From NCBI GenBank assembly GCA_023205875.1, contig CP060762.1:620001-684000 (forward strand): a DNA stretch of 64,000 bases, read 5' to 3'. This DNA comes from Chloropicon primus. Taxonomy: Eukaryota. Below, piece after piece: positions 14,571 to 24,690 of the stretch (positions are counted from its first letter, which is position 1; each line of letters starts with the position of its first letter). A program made the translations under genes and the position numbers. The notes beneath the pieces were generated by a model that did no database searches, was not told where the DNA came from, and was given only the letters and a program-made list of their open reading frames with translations.

Positions 14571-14794
14571 TGGGATCATAGAATGAATCACAGGGCCCAC
14601 GACGTAGGTGTTTCTCTCGTAGGTGTCTTTTATTATTGTGATCACTTTGTAACTGTTGTGTATTGTATAGTATTTTTGTGTGAAAGAGCACGAGAAGACG
14701 CTTCCTTCTCTCTTTTCCTCCGCTTCTCTCTTTTCCTCCGCCGCGCGCTCCCGTCCTCGTTCGTTTCTCTCGTTCTCGTCCCACGAGACAGAGA

Positions 14795-14881: not shown

Positions 14882-16375
14882 ATGAAGCCACTGTCGAGGC
14901 CATCTCTGAATGCTTCCGGAAGGCTTGCGGTCGTCAGGGGGAGAAGTTCTCCTTCGATGGAGAACCTCGCCCCCAAAATTGTCACGGCCGCGGAGGATGA
15001 CTCTCCCTTTTATCGCTGTCCATGTAAGAAGGCTTGTGCTAAACAATGTCTTTGCCGATGTGTTTGCTCGTACTGCAAAAACATTCGTCCATGTCTCCTG
15101 GGGTCGTCAGAGGCAATGCAAGACAATCCCTTTCATGCCACGGCTTGCGATTGTCAGCTGTGCAACAACGAGGGGAAGAGTCCTGTGTGCGGGAAGAGGA
15201 AGGCGAGCAGCGACCCCACCGTGGATTCTCTTGTCAACTCGTGGAAAGATTGGAACCCTCTCTTCGGAAAATGGAAGAACCGGCGTCGAAGATGCCACCC
15301 GTCCAAGGAAGGACGAGAACTTCCTCGGGGAGTGTCCAAGCATGGTGCTGAAAGGTACCATGCGACGATTAAAGGACTATTGGTTCCGAACAAAGTATCG
15401 TCATTGGGAACCTTCGACACCAAGGAAGCAGCCGCGGCGCGATACGACCTCGCTGCTACCTTGTCTCACGGGAGAGCAGCGATGCTGAATGGCGAAGTGG
15501 ACGAGAACCTCCTTGCCAAGTTTGGAAAGAAGACGCCCGAGGAACGATATGAAATGGCGATTGATCTCGTATCAGGTTGTCAGGGGGAAGCATTCCGCGA
15601 ATATCTCGACCAGGAGGAACAAAAGAGTCCTGTGTGCGGGAAGAGGAAGGCGAGCAGCGACCTCACCGTGGATTCTCTTGTCAACTCGTGGAAAGATTGG
15701 AACCCTCTCTTCGGAAAACTGAAGGACCAGCGTCCCAGTTGTAACCTGCCCAAGGAAGGACGAGAACTTCCTCGGGGAGTGGATAAGATGGATAAGCATG
15801 TGGAAAAGCATGATGAAAAGTACGATGTGAGGATTAGAGGACTATTGTTTCCGAACGTTATATCGACTTTGGGACGTGGGGTGGAGACCAAGGAAGCAGC
15901 CGCGGCGCGATACGACCTCGCCGCTACGTTGTATTACGGGAGAGCCGCAGAACTCAATGGCAAAAGAGACGACAAAATTCTTGACAAAATGCTGAGAGAC
16001 TTCGCTGCTATGTTGTTTCCCGGGAAAGCCGCGAAACCCAATGGCAAAAGGGACGGGAAACTACTTGACAAAGTACTTGACGACCTCGCTGCTGCATTGC
16101 CTCACGGGAGAGCCACGAAACCCAATGGCAAAAGGAACGGGAAACTACTTGACAAGCTGCTTGACGAGTTTGGAAAGAGGACGCCCGAGGAACGATTTGA
16201 AATGGCTGTTAAGCAAGTACGAGGTAAGAAGTGGAAAGGATTTCACCGCCAATTACTCGACCGGAAGAAGAAACAAAAGATACAGAGAGAAGAAACAGAG
16301 AGAAGAGAGGAGGAGGAGGGGGAATCAGAAGCGAAGGTCGACGACAGGTTCGTCGTGAGACATTGTCTTGGTTAA
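14882..16375 (+). CDS. Cys-rich N-terminus + two AP2/ERF-like DNA-binding domains (internal duplication)
   Basis: LPRGVSKHGAERYHATI...LGTFDTKEAAAARYDLAA...GRAAMLN is an AP2 consensus. A second copy lies 447 nt downstream (15176 vs 15623), followed by three NGKR.GK.LDK subrepeats. Confidence 0.85.
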   Translation: MKPLSRPSLNASGRLAVVRGRSSPSMENLAPKIVTAAEDDSPFYRCPCKKACAKQCLCRCVCSYCKNIRPCLLGSSEAMQDNPFHATACDCQLCNNEGKSPVCGKRKASSDPTVDSLVNSWKDWNPLFGKWKNRRRRCHPSKEGRELPRGVSKHGAERYHATIKGLLVPNKVSSLGTFDTKEAAAARYDLAATLSHGRAAMLNGEVDENLLAKFGKKTPEERYEMAIDLVSGCQGEAFREYLDQEEQKSPVCGKRKASSDLTVDSLVNSWKDWNPLFGKLKDQRPSCNLPKEGRELPRGVDKMDKHVEKHDEKYDVRIRGLLFPNVISTLGRGVETKEAAAARYDLAATLYYGRAAELNGKRDDKILDKMLRDFAAMLFPGKAAKPNGKRDGKLLDKVLDDLAAALPHGRATKPNGKRNGKLLDKLLDEFGKRTPEERFEMAVKQVRGKKWKGFHRQLLDRKKKQKIQREETERREEEEGESEAKVDDRFVVRHCLG

Positions 16376-16457: not shown

Positions 16458-16493
16458 ATCCTAAGGTCGCGGGTTCGATCCCCGCCGAAGGCA
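16458..16493 (+). tRNA. Orphan tRNA 3' half (positions 38-73), identity undetermined
   Basis: A-TCCTA-AGGTC-GCGGG-TTCGATC-CCCGC-CGAAGGC-A: exactly 36 nt with a perfect T-arm and acceptor 3' strand. No matching 5' half (GCCTTCG...TAGGA) seen nearby. Confidence 0.75.
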
Positions 16494-16673
16494 CATCTCG
16501 GCAGCAACGAACACAAGTTGCTCTCCAACCATGGTTCAAAATGACACGGGAAACTCCGACCCGTGATACACTTCCGACCTCTAGTACGGGGATCACATCC
16601 GGTGTCGAAACAACACCGCGGCGAAACAACAGCCGCCTTACCTCTTGCTCCGTGAGACAAGGGTTCTGTGAGA

Positions 16674-16797
16674 GACGTTAGTTATACAAGGATCACAACG
16701 AGATCGTAACGGCGGAGGACGGCGAGGACGACGACGGCGACTGACGTTAGTTATACAAGGATCACAACGAGATCGTAACGGCGGAGGACGGCGAGGA
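16674..16797. repeat. 55-bp exact direct repeat, 69-bp period
   Basis: GACGTTAGTTATACAAGGATCACAACGAGATCGTAACGGCGGAGGACGGCGAGGA at 16674 and 16743. Confidence 0.9.
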
Positions 16798-16921
16798 GGA
16801 CGGCGAGGAGGTGTGTGACCTGGCGGGAGCTGGAGAGAGAAAGAGAGCCGCCGTAACGCCAGAGCCGCGAACGAGGCGGCCGACGAGTGGGGACGAGAAG
16901 ACCACGACCAGAGAGAAAGCG

Positions 16922-18190
16922 ATGAGTTACCTCCTGGAATACTTCGGCCGCTGGTTGCCGACGAAGAAGAGGAGACTGACGAATACTGGGACGTCATGTG
17001 AAGAAGGGGCTGGTGGCGCCACCCCGGCCGCGGTTCTCCAGGTGGGTGGCGCCCAAGGATGGCGGGTGGCGCCCAAGGATTGTGGTGCCAATGTCTCTGT
17101 CTTCACCCACTTGCAGGGCAGCGGGCAGCCGTGCGGCGCGGTGGCACTCGGAACAAGCCTGGACACCAACGCTTGCACAGTGGCCCTGGCGATCTCCGCG
17201 GGACCTCATAGGGAGCGGGAGATGGCCGCCATCGAGGAAAACGTGGATCCGACGACGCTTCTCAATGCGGATGGACTTCTTGCCTCTCTTCGCTTCGCAG
17301 ACGACGAATCAGCTGGCGCGCGGCCCACCCTTGCACGCGAGGGTACACGGGCGGAGCGAACTCGCGAGCCTGAGGAGCTGACCCTGGTCCGCGTGGTCCG
17401 AGGCCGTGGCGGAGTCCACCTGGAGCGCGTTGAGGGCTTGAAAGAACTGACCCACTGCATCGTCTTCCTCCGCGAGTCCCTTGCGCAGGAGGGGCTTGGG
17501 AACAAGCTCGCTGGTCAGGCGGCCACGATCTCAAGCGCGTTGCTCGGCAAAGATCTTCCTAAACAGGTGAAAGCATTTCGTTTCGTGGAGCTTGGGACCG
17601 CCAGCCGCTCGCGATGCCTCAAGGACCGCAAAGTTCTTACGAAAGCTCTTGCCCTTGCGAAGGAGAAGGGCGAGCCTTGCGCGCTTCTTGTAGCTGCCTT
17701 GTCGCGATTGTCGAGACGGTCACAAGCTGACGAGGACCTCGACTACCTTGCTGAGCGCGCAGGGCAGGCCTCTATACTGGCGTGTATCCCGACGTCCCAT
17801 GCAGCAGCTTTGATTGGGGAGGAAAAGAAAGAGGAGCTCAAAAAGTACATGAGCAAGGCTGCAAGCACCTCGGACGGGCAAGCCGTGTACTCGGCGTCGC
17901 ACTGCATGCTCAAGTCCGGCGCCACCCGTTGTTCTGTAGCATCGGGCCAACACACTTCTGAGGAACTTTGTCTCCTCGTCGAACACGTCGAGCACGTCCT
18001 GAGGCACAAGCTGGAGAATCTGGAGAAGCCGGGGGAGCAGAAGCACGGGAAACCCCTTCTCCTCGTAGGTATTGCCCGTACGTCGCCTGGAACTGACGTC
18101 GCCAAGTCTACTTCGATATATGTCCAACGGTGCCTACTCCTCCACGTCCTCTCAAGGTGCGCGACAACCTTCAGAAGGATGTTGCGCTAA
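16922..18190 (+). CDS. Serine recombinase (resolvase-like) protein, 5' part: complete catalytic domain 1 and start of domain 2
   Basis: CIVFLRES (17471-17479)...LAGQ...FVELGTAS...DRKVL...LLVAALSRLSR (17699-17716) follows the YxRxS...Q...E.G.S...R..L...LDRLSR pattern. A second VGIARTS...SIYVQR occurs near the end. First ATG is at 16922 (frame open from 16811). Confidence 0.75.
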   Translation: MSYLLEYFGRWLPTKKRRLTNTGTSCEEGAGGATPAAVLQVGGAQGWRVAPKDCGANVSVFTHLQGSGQPCGAVALGTSLDTNACTVALAISAGPHREREMAAIEENVDPTTLLNADGLLASLRFADDESAGARPTLAREGTRAERTREPEELTLVRVVRGRGGVHLERVEGLKELTHCIVFLRESLAQEGLGNKLAGQAATISSALLGKDLPKQVKAFRFVELGTASRSRCLKDRKVLTKALALAKEKGEPCALLVAALSRLSRRSQADEDLDYLAERAGQASILACIPTSHAAALIGEEKKEELKKYMSKAASTSDGQAVYSASHCMLKSGATRCSVASGQHTSEELCLLVEHVEHVLRHKLENLEKPGEQKHGKPLLLVGIARTSPGTDVAKSTSIYVQRCLLLHVLSRCATTFRRMLR

Positions 18191-19773
18191 GCGGGAAGCT
18201 GCCGGTGATTGAAATCACAATTGGGACCTTTGCAGAGAAGTGTGGAGGCTCGACCTCGGAGGAGGCTGCCGTCCAAGAATGGGTGAAGAAGGTCTGCGAC
18301 GAGGGCAAATACGCAGGGGGCGTTCTACTCTGCACCCGTGCAGATCGGCTTACAAGGGAGCTTGCGACGCTCGGGACGCTCTTGGAAAGGTGCTGTAAGG
18401 CGAACATAGCAACGGTTGCGTGCTTGACAGAAGTGGATGCCGTCGTCACCGAGGAGAGACACGTTCAAGAGGCCGTAGCCCAGGTTCTCGCTGGAGATGA
18501 GGAGTATCTTCTTGGAAAGCGCTTTGTGGAGCAACGGGCGAGTGATCTCGTCCGCGCATGGAAGAACCAACCCACAGTTCGTGTGCTCGTCGCTGCTTGT
18601 TCCATCACGGAAGCGAACTACGACATCATTCTTCGCGAGGAGCACATGGAGTTCCTGGAGACCTACAGGCAATACTGCCACGTTCACTCCGTGAGGGACG
18701 AGTTGTTTGAAAACCGTGATGGACACGGCTTGGATGAAGACGCATTGAGCAGAGTCTTTGAGTACTTTGCGGATGCACTAAAGGGAGAACATGTCGATGT
18801 CGTGTTTGAGAATGAATGTTTCCCAGAAACCGCGATCTCTGTGACTCAAAAAGATTTCTTCGAATGCTCCTGCGCTGATAAATGCTCTCGCAAGTCGTCC
18901 AGGACAACAGGCACCGCGAACACCGCTCCAGCACATACTCGATGCATTTGTGGTTGTGACATGTGCAAGAGGAAGCGTCCTTGCATTCTGGTGGACAGCG
19001 ACGCCGAGGACGGCGGGGAGAGGGAGAGAGAGCTTCGGAAATTTGATGCCGCTGCATGTCCCTGTGAACGTTGCAGCAGCAGCCCCTTGAGCACTGGTAC
19101 GACAAGGAAGACACAGGCCAAGACCAACACGAAAGGGAAGAGGAAGGCCAAAGCAAGGAAGCCGATGAAGGAGTTTCCTCGACTTCCTACTACAGACGGT
19201 ACTCAAACCCTGCGCTGCATCTGCTGTGATGCTTTTCGTCGCCCTGAGTGCCCCTTGGTCAAAACAGGAGCTCTGACCCCGGTTCCTGGGGAGGAACGTG
19301 ATCGAGGTGGGCACAATCCCACTTGCCTCCTCTCGAACTGGTGCTGGTACTGCCACCGCTTCATCTTCAAAAGTGAGTTTAACCACTGGTGCTCGTTCGG
19401 ATGCTTCTTGAAAGCCACGAAGTTCGTGGACAAGAAGGAGCTTTGGGACATGAGCAAGGAAATTGGCATGACACAACTGAAGAACACGATTGGCTTCTGG
19501 TTTTGTGTTCCGTGTACAAAGAAACCTGAGTCCGAGAAAGCCTTGATCGAGAAGATCCCCTCGATCCCCTTGATCCCAACCAACGGTTCAAGGGGCTTGA
19601 GGTGCTTGTCCTGCAGTCATAACGATTGCAAAATCGGCAAGGGGTACAAGGAGAACGCAGAAGGAGGCGGCGTGAACGTTGGCTCCGGCCGGCAGAAGTC
19701 CGAGAACAGAAAGGCCAAAGAGGTAGTGACCCCGCATCCAATGCTCGTCAACATGATGCTACAGGACTCCTAA
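18130..19773 (+). CDS. Serine recombinase protein, 3' part (-1 frame): rest of catalytic domain 2, Cys-rich domain and zinc-finger-like clusters
   Basis: TFAEKCGGS...VLLCTRADRLTRELATL...LERCCKANIATVAC completes a resolvase domain. Followed by a CxCxxxC...CxCxCxxC...RPC...CxCxxC domain and several CxxC pairs. Overlaps the upstream ORF; no early ATG. Confidence 0.72.
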   Translation: MPTPPRPLKVRDNLQKDVALSGKLPVIEITIGTFAEKCGGSTSEEAAVQEWVKKVCDEGKYAGGVLLCTRADRLTRELATLGTLLERCCKANIATVACLTEVDAVVTEERHVQEAVAQVLAGDEEYLLGKRFVEQRASDLVRAWKNQPTVRVLVAACSITEANYDIILREEHMEFLETYRQYCHVHSVRDELFENRDGHGLDEDALSRVFEYFADALKGEHVDVVFENECFPETAISVTQKDFFECSCADKCSRKSSRTTGTANTAPAHTRCICGCDMCKRKRPCILVDSDAEDGGERERELRKFDAAACPCERCSSSPLSTGTTRKTQAKTNTKGKRKAKARKPMKEFPRLPTTDGTQTLRCICCDAFRRPECPLVKTGALTPVPGEERDRGGHNPTCLLSNWCWYCHRFIFKSEFNHWCSFGCFLKATKFVDKKELWDMSKEIGMTQLKNTIGFWFCVPCTKKPESEKALIEKIPSIPLIPTNGSRGLRCLSCSHNDCKIGKGYKENAEGGGVNVGSGRQKSENRKAKEVVTPHPMLVNMMLQDS

Positions 19774-19912
19774 GCCGATCCTAAAGACTATCCTAATCCT
19801 AATCCCCAAAAAGCAATCCTAAAGCTGAAATATTCTATCCTCCTCCACCACACTATGTATGTCTCCGTTGACCGCCGGCACATCGTTCGTTCGTTCGTTC
19901 GTTCCATCCTAA
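19768..19912. repeat. Cluster of ATCCTAA motifs and right boundary CATCCTAA
   Basis: ATCCTAA at 19778, 19790, 19796 and 19816; CATCCTAA at 19905-19912; (TTCG)n microsatellite just before the latter. Confidence 0.7.
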
Positions 19913-20619
19913 AAACGTCGTTCAGGTGACCTTCCTTCCACGATCATGGAACTTCGCATCAACAAACGAAACTCGGGGAGAGACAAGATTCAGTGAGGGA
20001 CTTGCAGAGTGTCTCCGCTGGACGCATCTCGCAATTCCAGCAGCAGCAGCAGCAGCAAGAAGAGGTGGCACCTGGCATCGATCGATCGATCGAGGAGCCC
20101 AGGTGGAGGGAGAACGAAGACCAACAGGAACAGGAACAGGCTTGTGACTTGTGGGGTGGCGTTGCGAACAACGGACGATCGGGCGGGAAGGGCGGGAGGG
20201 GGAGAGGGGGAGAGGGGGAGAGGGAGAGGGGTCACACCTTCACGCCGGTGGAGAGGCAAGGCGCGACCTTGGCACGCAGCATGTGATAAAGTCTTGCTGA
20301 GCTGGGTGTGGCCTCTCTCTCTCTCGATCTGCTGGGACTACGAAAGACGTTTCTTTTCCAGGGAGGGGAATTATGGGTCCTTCGATTGTACGATAGTCTC
20401 GTTTTTCAGATTAGATTAAGCTCTCGTCCGTCGATATTCCGGGCGTGTGAACAAAGATCCGATTCGCGTGAGGCCGTCGCACCCATCCCTGCACTCCTGC
20501 TGCGATACCATGCCACCAGCCTTGCCATACTCGCAGTTCATGTCCGTGACAAACTCATAGGTGCAAGGTGTGCGGCGGATGCACCGTTCCCCAAGCCAAA
20601 GGTGAAGACGGAGGCTCGA

Positions 20620-21406
20620 GAGCAAGGCATCTCGCTCTGAGGCGTGTTGGATGGATCCTCACCAACGTCTTCTTCTCGAGGTATCGTATGAAGCTCTGCA
20701 CAGCATGGAATCCGATTCTTCCTCGAGTTGGATGCATCAGAAACAGAGGATGGGTGTGATGGTGGGCATGTACACTCACTCAGCATGTTGAATACAGCAA
20801 TATCTATGCTGGTTATGGCCATAAGTCTGAGGCTCATGCGGTTACGTCAGGTTCTTTGGGTGTTTCTGCAGGGCGACTGTCCTTCACATATGGTTTGCAA
20901 GGAGCTTGTGCAGCTGTTGATACGGCTTGTTCATCCTCTCTTGTCGCAGCACACATGTCCTACATGAGCCTTGTTCTTGGCGACGTCTCGAAGGGACTAT
21001 ATACACAATATGCATCGCTTGCGTTCTCGGTCCTCTTGAAGATGGTTCCAAACAAGATACGGTGATGCTACGTGGCACTGCTGTGAACCAAGATGGGCGA
21101 TCCAGTGCTTTGACCGCACCGCACGGACCCTCTCAACAGCAAGTGATGCGTATGAGCTTGCACTCGGCAGACCTTGATGCCTGGAGTGCACAGGTCTTGC
21201 AGATGCACGGTACAGGTACTCCTCTTGGTGGCCCCATTGAGGTCGGTGCGGCATCTGCTGTGTTACTCTCCGAGGCCACCAAACGGGACTTCCCTGTCCA
21301 CATGTCTGGAGTGGAGAGCAATATGGGGCATAGTGAAGCAGCAGCTGGTATGGCTGGTATGGTTCAGCTCGCAGGCAATTTGCTGCGGTCTATGTCCTCC
21401 GTATAA
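20620..21406 (+). pseudogene. Decayed type I polyketide synthase ketosynthase (KS) fragment
   Basis: MDPHQRLLLEVSYEAL (20651), GRLSFTYGLQG...DTACSSSLVAAH, NQDGRSSALTAPHGPSQ, HGTGTPLG.PIE and SNMGHSEAAAG, spread across frames with frameshifts and deletions. Confidence 0.88.
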
Positions 21407-21420: not shown

Positions 21421-21514
21421 TTCGAGTGTAGCTCCTTAACCACTCGGACAACTCAGCAAGGGTTTTTGCTCGCTGAGTGCAGGATTCGAACCTGCGCGGC
21501 TGAAGCCACTACAT
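21421..21514 (-). tRNA. trnS-CGA: Circularly permuted tRNA-Ser(CGA): 3' half 21514-21471, 13-nt spacer, 5' half 21457-21421
   Basis: Minus strand reads A-TGTAG-TGGCTTCAGCCGC-GCAGG-TTCGAAT-CCTGC-ACTCAGC-G, then AGCAAAAACCCTT, then GCTGAGT-TG-TCCGAGTGGTTAAGGAG-CTACA-CT-CGA-A. Acceptor (GCTGAGT/ACTCAGC) and anticodon (CTACA/TGTAG) stems pair; long variable arm. Confidence 0.93.
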
Positions 21515-21655: not shown

Positions 21656-22309
21656 ATGGCTCCTGCTCCTGCTCCTGCTCAGGACCCCCGGCTTTCGGTC
21701 ATCCGCGGGACGATCCGGGAGGTTCCCAACTTTCCGAAGGATGGTATCCTGTTCCAGGACATCACGACGACGTTGCTGGACCCCGTGGCGTTCGGGCACT
21801 GCATCGAGTTGCTGTACGAGAGGTACAGGGACAAGGGCGTGGACGTGGTGGCTGGTTTCGAGGCGAGGGGGTTGATTTTCGGCGCTCCGCTCTCGCTGCG
21901 GCTCAAGTGCGCCTTCGTGCCCCTGCGGAAGCCCAAGAAGCTCCCTGGAGAAACGATTGGGGAGGCGTACGACTTGGAGTACGGCTCGGACAGGATCGAG
22001 ATGCACGTGGGGCACGTCAAGGAGGGCGACAGGGTGAGTGGCGGCGCCTCTCCGCCTCGTGGCGAGCCTCGACGGACTGACTTTCTCTCTCTCTCTCTTT
22101 CTCAAAAACCTAACCTGCAGGTTTTGCTGGTGGACGACCTCATCGCGACGGGGGGAACCATGGTCGCCGGCATCAAGCTGATGAAGAAGGTGAAGGCCGA
22201 GATCGTGGAGGCGGCCTGCATCCTGGAGCTTCCCTTGCTCAAGGGGAAGGACAAGCTGGTGGAGCACGACGTGAGCCTCTACACCATGGTGGAGAAGGAC
22301 GTCTTGTGA
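21656..22309 (+). CDS. APT: Adenine phosphoribosyltransferase, 2 exons (intron 22034-22120)
   Basis: PNFPKDGILFQDIT, GFEARG, LEYG and VLLVDDLIATGGT PRPP motif; 87-nt GTGAGT...CTAAC-CTGCAG intron. Confidence 0.95.
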   Translation: MAPAPAPAQDPRLSVIRGTIREVPNFPKDGILFQDITTTLLDPVAFGHCIELLYERYRDKGVDVVAGFEARGLIFGAPLSLRLKCAFVPLRKPKKLPGETIGEAYDLEYGSDRIEMHVGHVKEGDRVSGGASPPRGEPRRTDFLSLSLSQKPNLQVLLVDDLIATGGTMVAGIKLMKKVKAEIVEAACILELPLLKGKDKLVEHDVSLYTMVEKDVL

Positions 22310-22425
22310 CGACGAGGTGTACCAGGATTCCACACAAACACACACACACACACACATAACATAGAAGAAGGTTGTTCATATCATTCTTATTCATTCTTAT
22401 TCATTCTTATTCTTGTTCATTCCGA

Positions 22426-22677
22426 GAGATCGTGGAGGCGGCCTGCACCCTGGAGCTTCCCTTGTGAGCCTCTACACCATGGTGGAGAAGGACGTCACCT
22501 AATCATACGTCGGTCGGTCGTCACCTAATCATACGTCGGTCGGTCGTCACCTAATCATACGTCGGTCGTCACCTCATCATACGTCGGTCGGTCGGCCGTC
22601 ACTCACCTCATCATATGTCGGTCGGTCGGCCGTCACTCACCTCATAATACGTCGGTCGGTCGGTCGTCACTCACCTA
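22426..22677. repeat. Partial duplicate of APT 3' end followed by a minisatellite (GTCACCTAATCATACGTCGGTCG-like units)
   Basis: 22426-22496 copies 22199-22303 with an internal deletion; then about 6 units of 22-34 bp. Confidence 0.85.
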
Positions 22678-22744
22678 AACATGATGATGATTATTCATCC
22701 TCCTAACGTTCGTTCATTCATTTTAACAACATTCTTATTCTTAT

Positions 22745-23954: not shown

Positions 23955-24225
23955 CTCCCAAACCTGCAACCAGCTTCCTGCCCAACCCAACCCAACCCAA
24001 TCCAATCCAATCCAAACAATTCACTTGGTTCGGTTCGATCTCTTCGATGCTCCCGACGCCGAAGACGAGGACGAGCAGTTGTGCGGAGAGTGGTCCTCCT
24101 CCTCCTCCTCCTCCTCTCCCTTCTCTCTCTCTCCCTTCTCTCTCTCTCTCTCTTTCCCGCCACCAAAGGCTCGCCGCCAGTGTCCCGCTTTTTGGCGGGA
24201 GCGAGGGTCTGGGTGGAACGAGGGA

Positions 24226-24641
24226 CTCGTCTTCGTCTTCAGTCGTCGGCGGAGGACGCGAGAGACGGGTCGACGGAGAGGGGAAGGGCCTCACAGGCGG
24301 AAGCGCTTTGTCTTCCTCTTTTGAACGAGTGGTCGCGTCCGTAGACCTCGGCGCAACAACGAGAACATCCAACGACAGAGGAGCAAGACATCCTCAGCCT
24401 CGTCTTCGTCTTCAGTCGTCGGCGGAGGACGCGAGAGACGGGTCGACGGAGAGGGGAAGGGCCTCGCAGGCGGAAGCGCTTTGTCTTCCTCTTTCGAACG
24501 AGTGGTCGCGTCCGTAGACCTCGGCGCAACAACGAGAACATCCAACGACAGAGGAGCAAGACATCCTCAGCCTCGTCTTCGTCTTCAGTCGTCGGCGGAG
24601 GACGCGAGAGACGGGTCGACGGAGAGGGGAAGGGCCTCGCA
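24226..24641. repeat. 173-bp tandem repeat, ~2.4 copies, in a divergent promoter region
   Basis: AGTCGTCGGCGGAGGACGCG recurs at 24241, 24414 and 24587; copies nearly identical. Confidence 0.92.
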
Positions 24642-24690
24642 AGACAGCCTCAGCCTCAGCCTCAGCCTCTTGTTTTCTTGTTTTGTCTTT

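Follow-up and report, generated by a model that had tools for sequence, protein, structure and literature searches.

What kind of gene carries two serine-recombinase-like domains in a single chain in a green alga, and does the frameshift that interrupts it have a function? The question is raised by a 64,000 nt stretch of Chloropicon primus DNA (assembly GCA_023205875.1, contig CP060762.1, positions 620,001 to 684,000 of the forward strand), referred to here as the window and numbered from its first letter. The explanation to which we give slightly better than even chances, judged from sequence, is that a 950-residue protein, with tandem predicted serine-recombinase domains and Cys-rich parts likely to bind DNA, is the transposase of an element dispersed in C. 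primus, the break being a slip or a private mutation. The window belongs to a compact eukaryotic chromosome; a protein search with it gave six clusters, every one named C. primus, and the protein identities agree with that species. The features on which the explanation depends are as follows.

16922..19773, + strand: twin serine-recombinase-like gene encoding a 950 amino acid (aa) protein, recognised from the open reading frames (ORFs), the homologue P0013 and run contigs; one base is missing in the window copy
17453..17791, + strand: predicted resolvase-like domain 1 (aa 178-290), with R184, S186, Q199, R236, S261 replacing Asp, R262 and R265
18053..18531, + strand: predicted resolvase-like domain 2 (aa 378-537), with R386, S388, Q402, D475, R476 and R479; the break lies inside it
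18150..18151, + strand: the lesion, one C missing, likely through an assembly slip or a private mutation; contigs of five of the six runs carry the C

The reading frames and the break

The ORF listing of the window gives ORF1 at 16922-18190 and ORF2, in another frame, at 18130-19773. A preliminary description, made from the letters of the window, had joined these into a single protein, some 950 aa long, that contains two serine-recombinase domains, and the positions it gave for the motifs LRES (R at 17471), LSRLSR (17699), IARTS (18071) and ADRLTR (18340) are confirmed in the sequence. The single protein is borne out by P0013 (A3770_09p56710), from the other strain, which is unbroken, matches the Pfam Resolvase family PF00239 twice and has 950 aa, equal to the window's 2852 nt plus one base; it differs from the window by four residues, two in the first 410 aa and two in the last 540. 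The neighbours of A3770_09p56710 are ketoacyl synthase and APRT genes, matching the window (PMC6731263 Supplementary Data 2; here and below, statements from cited articles and files refer to the portions consulted), and, as these flank both genes, they represent the same locus.

Contigs were compared from six of the 20 listed runs (X1, X2, X3, X5, X6 and X7), the metagenome runs X8-X17, with word shares of 0.18-0.36, being left out. A C is inserted behind 18150, at full depth, in the contigs of X1, X2, X3, X5 and X6, and the shifted form of the window is absent from the contigs of all runs compared, X7 having no contig across the site. The repair originally proposed, removal of one TC, therefore gives way to a single C missing after 18150. 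Of the 17 proteins named as C. primus (P0001-P0017), six have the natural reading across the break in the 950 aa protein, CLLLHVLLKVRDN, the other 11 skipping, lacking or stopping short of this stretch. P0002 (HOP50_09g56930) equals ORF1 over 382 aa and then ORF2, its model bridging the break with a predicted intron of 92 nt that starts with GT; splicing of this intron would remove the invariant ARTS motif, and a 1279 nt contig from X2 that spans the break has the C and lacks the intron.

One-base slips are frequent at repeats in Nanopore assemblies polished with short reads. The assembly that carries the P0002 model is of this kind (PMC12301720). The break is not a feature of the family; its likely origin is an assembly slip of the long-read consensus in a repeat, with a recent mutation private to this copy as second choice. 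Of the causes first suggested, those two remain, whilst recoding is very unlikely, because the run contigs carry the C and the syntenic copy is unbroken. Some points count on the other side: X1 and X3 are a single sample, contigs drop rare variants, and the best run shares at most 0.81 of the words of the window, so that the C holds for these runs rather than for the window's own reads. The frameshift is in any case the least interesting part of the locus.

Two predicted catalytic domains and their relatives

Searches with the separate ORFs gave unequal matches to PF00239, with ORF1 scoring 17.8 bits (E=0.0038), under the cut-off of 23.3, and ORF2 26.5 bits (E=7.7e-6); the unbroken P0013 matches in two stretches with 41 bits (E=2.5e-10), which passes the cut-off. 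A PHROG DNA invertase family matches domain 2 (E=1.3e-4). With a purpose-built profile of 31 bacterial resolvases, domain 1 scored 2.3 bits, a weak signal, and domain 2 scored 8.0, the best of 300 shuffles reaching 0.9. The ten best atlas neighbours of the 170-640 region of P0013 are resolvase clusters, with a score of 0.92. On these sequence comparisons, the two resolvase-like domains are real and lie within one protein.

The catalytic residues are numbered here after the gamma-delta sequence (Arg8, Ser10, Arg45, Asp67, Arg68 and Arg71). In serine recombinases Ser10 is the nucleophile, acting with Arg8, Arg68 and Arg71. The equivalents of Arg8, Ser10, Gln19, Arg68 and Arg71 are invariant in both domains of P0013 and its distant homologues, and the order and spacing of the motifs, R-x-S, Q, [DE]-x-x-S/T and (D)R-x-x-R, are those of small resolvases and serine integrases. 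Domain 1 keeps the Arg45 equivalent and has Ser or Asn at the Asp67 position; domain 2 keeps Asp67. Hence the earlier statement that both domains retain their catalytic residues stands for Arg8, Ser10, Arg68 and Arg71, and has to be qualified for Asp67 in domain 1 and for Arg45 in domain 2.

A full HMMER scan returned eight matches, amongst them the distant P0022, P0023 and P0024. P0033-P0052 came from a search by profile and from look-ups of clusters, and a third search brought none further. Four homologues from marine data, P0035, P0041, P0048 and P0049, are each encoded in one reading frame of 1106-1178 aa, are about 27% identical to P0013 and have both recombinase domains in the same order. 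Homologues encoding the halves separately, which the preliminary description had named as grounds for abandoning the single protein, did not appear amongst these, all being single-frame. P0013 and these four proteins agree at each of the 13 motif positions checked, R265 being displaced by a gap in alignment A7 and aligned in A6. Across P0013, P0048, P0041 and P0035, four-way identity is 31/113 in domain 1 and 30/123 in domain 2 (24-27%), compared with 10/87 (11%) in the linker and 19/330 in the C-terminal part. The distant clade has long insertions in domain 2, and some of its records are on contigs of 374-644 kb. A third branch, P0022 and P0030-P0032 (JGI and Logan records), is around 36-40% identical to domain 1 and consists only of pieces of 153-156 aa.

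No relative was confirmed by tblastn in viral contigs (queries P0013, P0035 and A4), JGI metagenome contigs (P0013 and A4) or GTDB genomes (A4), scans that use few exact patterns and so are no proof of absence. In tblastn searches, P0013 had no match in plasmids and one weak, unrelated match in phages (E=2), and an atlas search with P0023 gave no usable match. Neither P0013 nor A3 matched any PDB sequence significantly.

For structure prediction, bacterial resolvases were kept out of the AlphaFold alignment so that the model stayed independent of them. The predicted strands and helices of both domains follow the resolvase order, and it is sequence rather than the low-confidence models that supports the resolvase fold. 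Several results weigh against the two-domain reading. Both AlphaFold models, from one or eight sequences, have a mean predicted local distance difference test score of 33; the top Foldseek match is a serine integrase, insignificant at E=0.07; and the best VIA match (Z=3.5) is to Sin recombinase, with a root-mean-square deviation of 3.3 over 86 residues, tied with an unrelated STAS protein. Domain 1 of P0013 alone falls under the Pfam cut-off (E=0.00055, 20.5 bits), its canonical helix-E motif is unrecognisable, and the Arg45 equivalent of domain 2 was not found in the alignments. Profile-profile probabilities are modest, at 6% and 17% (E=0.006 and 0.0015). PF00239 is matched by none of the eight members of distant alignment A4; it is because none matches this family alone that the distant members are unannotated, which marks how far the family has drifted. 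As for the origin of the pair, domains 1 and 2 have no significant similarity to each other by hhalign (E=0.15), so that it may have arisen by duplication within the gene or by joining two different recombinases.

Two motifs were recognised in the C-terminal part.

18856..19081, + strand: Cys-rich block (aa 646-720), predicted to bind metal; it matches the start of an upstream ORF with AP2-like repeats (28% over 75 aa, pairwise E=2e-5)
19339..19404, + strand: zinc-finger-like motif, CxxC-x-CSxxC / CGxxC, kept in P0041, P0048 and P0049

The CxCxxC of the Cys-rich block is retained in distant homologues, and the zinc-finger-like motif, by its sequence, is likely to bind DNA. The tail is zinc-finger-like in P0013, P0041 and P0048, and that of P0035 has AP2-like repeats; no Pfam family was matched for 18550-19770.

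A dispersed repeat and its possible mode of movement

The gene is a dispersed, expressed repeat, with about ten loci per strain. Orthogroups OG0000040 and OG0000045 contain at least 28 genes which, when those with adjacent numbers are merged, form at least nine loci on six chromosomes in CCMP1205 and at least 11 on nine chromosomes in RCC138 (PMC12301720 File S1). Average nucleotide identity between these strains is 99.91%, and their chromosomes are collinear (C. primus genome paper). Amongst the genes listed, eight loci pair by locus number between the strains, with one and three unpaired. The family proteins are 93-97% identical to P0013 (alignment A1). Both groups appear in the list of C. 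primus-specific groups, with none in the C. roscoffensis orthogroups among those listed (PMC12301720 File S1), and three gene rows show no homologue in 13 other algae at 1e-10 (PMC6731263 Supplementary Data 2). Read depth in X1 is around 1,400-1,900 over the gene and 135-175 in the flanks, roughly tenfold on what is a rough measure, and the expression values of three copies are 60.5, 49.4 and 38.4, against 18.5 for APRT (unit unstated, with reads possibly shared amongst copies; PMC6731263).

Copies vary internally and at their margins.

18065..18503, + strand: 439-bp segment present in the window and lost in a deletion derivative (joint 18064 to 18504 in X1, X3, X5 and X6)
16607..16921, + strand: 5' region common to other copies, with ragged starts; it contains a polymorphic 69-bp tandem duplication (16674-16805)
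19774..19920, + strand: 3' region with five CCTAA telomere-like units; the tentative right end, around 19920, is given by loose contig ends

The derivative without domain 2, which keeps domain 1, accounts for about half of the depth, and the 439-bp deletion fits split gene models such as P0007 and P0006. A loose end behind 19920 is found in X3 and X5, with an identical other flank in both.

Serine recombinases described from eukaryotes are the IS607-like TnpA proteins that stand beside Fanzor2 (PMC3627910). The algal gene is like IS607 in that a serine recombinase would likely drive a mobile element of a eukaryote and in that no terminal inverted repeats (TIRs) are seen; IS607 also lacks target duplications and has defined ends that meet at a dinucleotide, and the ends of the algal element are tentative. 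TnpA, including its eukaryotic and giant-virus forms with Fanzor2, is nevertheless small and single-domain, with an N-terminal helix-turn-helix (HTH), and is usually found by TnpB or Fanzor2 (PMC3627910, PMC4058570, PMC6188088), whereas the algal protein and its homologues have two catalytic domains in 950-1180 aa and Cys-rich or AP2 C-terminal parts. In IS607 the HTH is MerR-like, and the algal protein matched no HTH family in Pfam, NCBIfam or PHROGs; nor was there a TnpB match at the locus, the flanking ORFs being AP2-like and ketosynthase. Small resolvases and invertases (gamma-delta, Tn3, Sin and Gin) and large serine integrases share motif order, spacing and predicted strands and helices with the algal protein, but each of their chains has a single catalytic domain, with either helix E and an HTH or Recombinase and zinc-ribbon domains behind it; neither Recombinase (PF07508) nor zinc-ribbon domains matched the algal protein at E up to 10. 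Cryptons and other tyrosine-recombinase transposons are also eukaryotic DNA elements without TIRs that use a site-specific-type recombinase (PMC3627910), though the enzyme belongs to the tyrosine rather than the serine class, and short terminal direct repeats are a Crypton trait. By these sequence traits the algal protein is not IS607, a small resolvase or a large serine integrase, and it likely works like a serine transposase; it possibly represents a new transposon superfamily. The literature searched, subscription papers and Repbase reports being outside its scope, describes no natural tandem-domain serine recombinase, and the words 'recombinase' and 'resolvase' are absent from the main text of two C. 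primus genome papers.

If the protein is such a transposase, Ser186 and Ser388 would both be nucleophiles, and the four active sites of the serine-recombinase synaptic complex would come from two chains. Strand exchange by serine recombinases takes place in a tetramer, through a 180-degree rotation, and the tetramer can be divided into cutting dimers, on the same duplex, or rotating dimers, on different duplexes and moving together; IS607 dimers are proposed to be of the rotating kind (PMC4058570). The element would excise and insert by cutting, 180-degree subunit rotation and re-joining, without TIRs, as in IS607, and by analogy with IS607 a circular intermediate may follow excision. The rotating pair might be the two linked domains, of which the first would sit on one DNA, element junction or target, and the second on the other. 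The preliminary description had suggested instead that a fused pseudo-dimer could cut both strands of an asymmetric site. We lean modestly towards the rotating over such a cutting pair, because a link of around 45-60 residues across a pair that parts in rotation would be strained. The losses of Asp67 in domain 1 and Arg45 in domain 2 could then represent a division of labour between the partners.

Other accounts of the same data have to be weighed against such a transposase. Only one domain may cut, the other being a regulatory or scaffolding copy, so that the protein would assemble as a normal tetramer in which each chain brings its own partner domain. Domain 1 would suit that role through its Ser or Asn at Asp67 and its weak score, domain 2 through its missing Arg45 equivalent and the long insertions tolerated in the distant clade, and the abundance of the derivative that retains domain 1 alone also fits; yet a structural copy would be expected to lose its serine, and the equivalents of Ser10, Arg8, Arg68 and Arg71 are invariant in both domains at about 27% identity, so we regard this as unlikely. 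We hold it just as improbable that the gene is a passenger, or a domesticated DNA-binding protein that is possibly no recombinase now, and that another transposon or the copying of segments has dispersed it. Since the locus is a nest of repeats, with the AP2 ORF, a ketosynthase pseudogene and other repeats as neighbours, the gene could indeed be carried along. Other copies join on the left anywhere from 16607 to 16852 in the run contigs, in which neither a sharp left end nor a target duplication or clean empty site could be recognised, and the 3' units resemble telomeres. C. primus has other mobile families, namely Fanzor2 elements with TIRs (10.1101/2023.08.09.552727), which are distinct from the twin-recombinase element. 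The four unpaired loci are apparently strain-specific, and the basis of this is annotation alone; none of the 14 chromosome-9 indels in the rows listed in Supplementary Data 8 is element-sized. Against a passenger stand the invariant catalytic motifs, the lack, in Pfam and PHROG scans of the locus, of any gene for a reverse transcriptase or a DDE or HUH enzyme, and two traits typical of selfish elements, the recurring internal deletion and the exchange of C-terminal modules (P0035 having AP2, P0013 and P0048 the zinc-finger-like kind).

That the split itself is functional, with a programmed frameshift, editing or an intron giving one-domain and two-domain products, seems to us very remote. The shift is present in the window and the P0002 model spans it; but no run compared has that form, the syntenic copy is unbroken, the intron would delete ARTS, and the distant homologues are single frames.

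The transposase reading would gain in reach if the element belongs to an unrecognised superfamily of eukaryotic DNA transposons that extends beyond one alga, with a single-chain pair of active domains, swappable zinc-finger or AP2 tails, a dimer of pseudo-dimers and insertion by tRNA genes, a wider proposal that we put forward tentatively and rate at somewhat short of even. In the literature consulted, serine recombinases act as four separate single-domain subunits, and the eukaryotic ones are only IS607-like. A linker fixes which two subunits stay together, and would therefore make the subunit-rotation model directly testable. The protein would also lend itself directly as an asymmetric recombinase scaffold in which each DNA partner has its own domain, and its element would be a further class of mobile DNA, filed by annotation pipelines under hypothetical proteins.

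The surrounding locus

The preliminary description took repeats to mark the boundaries of the element. The 69-bp repeat at 16674-16805 does not qualify, since in the other strain this tandem duplication is heterozygous, being listed as an insertion (row 138), and no TIR was found among the best 25 inverted pairs by length in the window. A joint from 16582 to 20927 was considered as a clean empty site and rejected, lying inside the ketosynthase pseudogene and being crossed by other contigs. Two features lie upstream of the repeated recombinase region.

16458..16493, + strand: tRNA 3' half, around 110 nt upstream of the repeated region that starts at 16607, recognised by sequence and a T-arm match
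14882..16375, + strand: low-copy ORF of 497 aa with the Cys block, AP2-like repeats and internal duplications, and no recombinase domain

No full tRNA gene or 5' half belonging to the 16458-16493 fragment was found in the window. In the segment 16450-16582 (+ strand), the tRNA 3' half is followed by around 90 nt, the end of which can pair with the leader (fold z=-1.7); in other contigs this segment has different upstream sequence, and a T run after 16582 is joined to 20927. It is possibly a piece of an RNA polymerase III gene or a small repeat.

On the other side of the recombinase locus is a circularly permuted tRNA-Ser(CGA) gene at 21421-21514 (minus strand), composed of the 3' half (21514-21471), a 13-nt spacer, the 5' half (21457-21421) and a T run. 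ARAGORN misses it as it stands and calls it once the halves are reordered. Permuted tRNA genes are known in other green algae (PMC3978253), and 'permuted' is not a word found in the consulted portion of PMC12301720. The position of the recombinase locus, between a tRNA 3' half and this gene, is reminiscent of Ty and TRE, retrotransposons of compact genomes that target tRNA genes (PMC5006619); these are retroelements with reverse transcriptase, of which there is none at the algal locus. At two joints, where the tRNA side amounts to only 21 nt, other copies seem to lie just after tRNA ends, which we treat as a lead only.

The ORF at 14882-16375 has a short direct repeat, CCGTTAGGATG, on either side, at around 14795 and 16386, and its relatives are joined in contigs to the 3' end of the recombinase gene at 19755. 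It is likely to be a derivative of a related element, and has no significant pairwise match to P0035. Further upstream, at 14716-14770, is a short TC-rich repeat with very high depth in X1, X2 and X5 and flanking words in common, perhaps the end of another repeat family.

Downstream of the recombinase gene, 20606-21406 (+ strand) is a frameshifted ketosynthase (polyketide synthase) fragment that ends at the tRNA-Ser terminator. The stretch 22373-22690 holds tandem repeats together with partial copies of the APRT gene end, the sequence at 22199-22237 being repeated at 22426-22464. Tandem repeats on a 177-bp scale also lie at 24047-24680, upstream of a glycosyltransferase-like ORF, where the other strain is recorded as having a heterozygous insertion of 177 bp.

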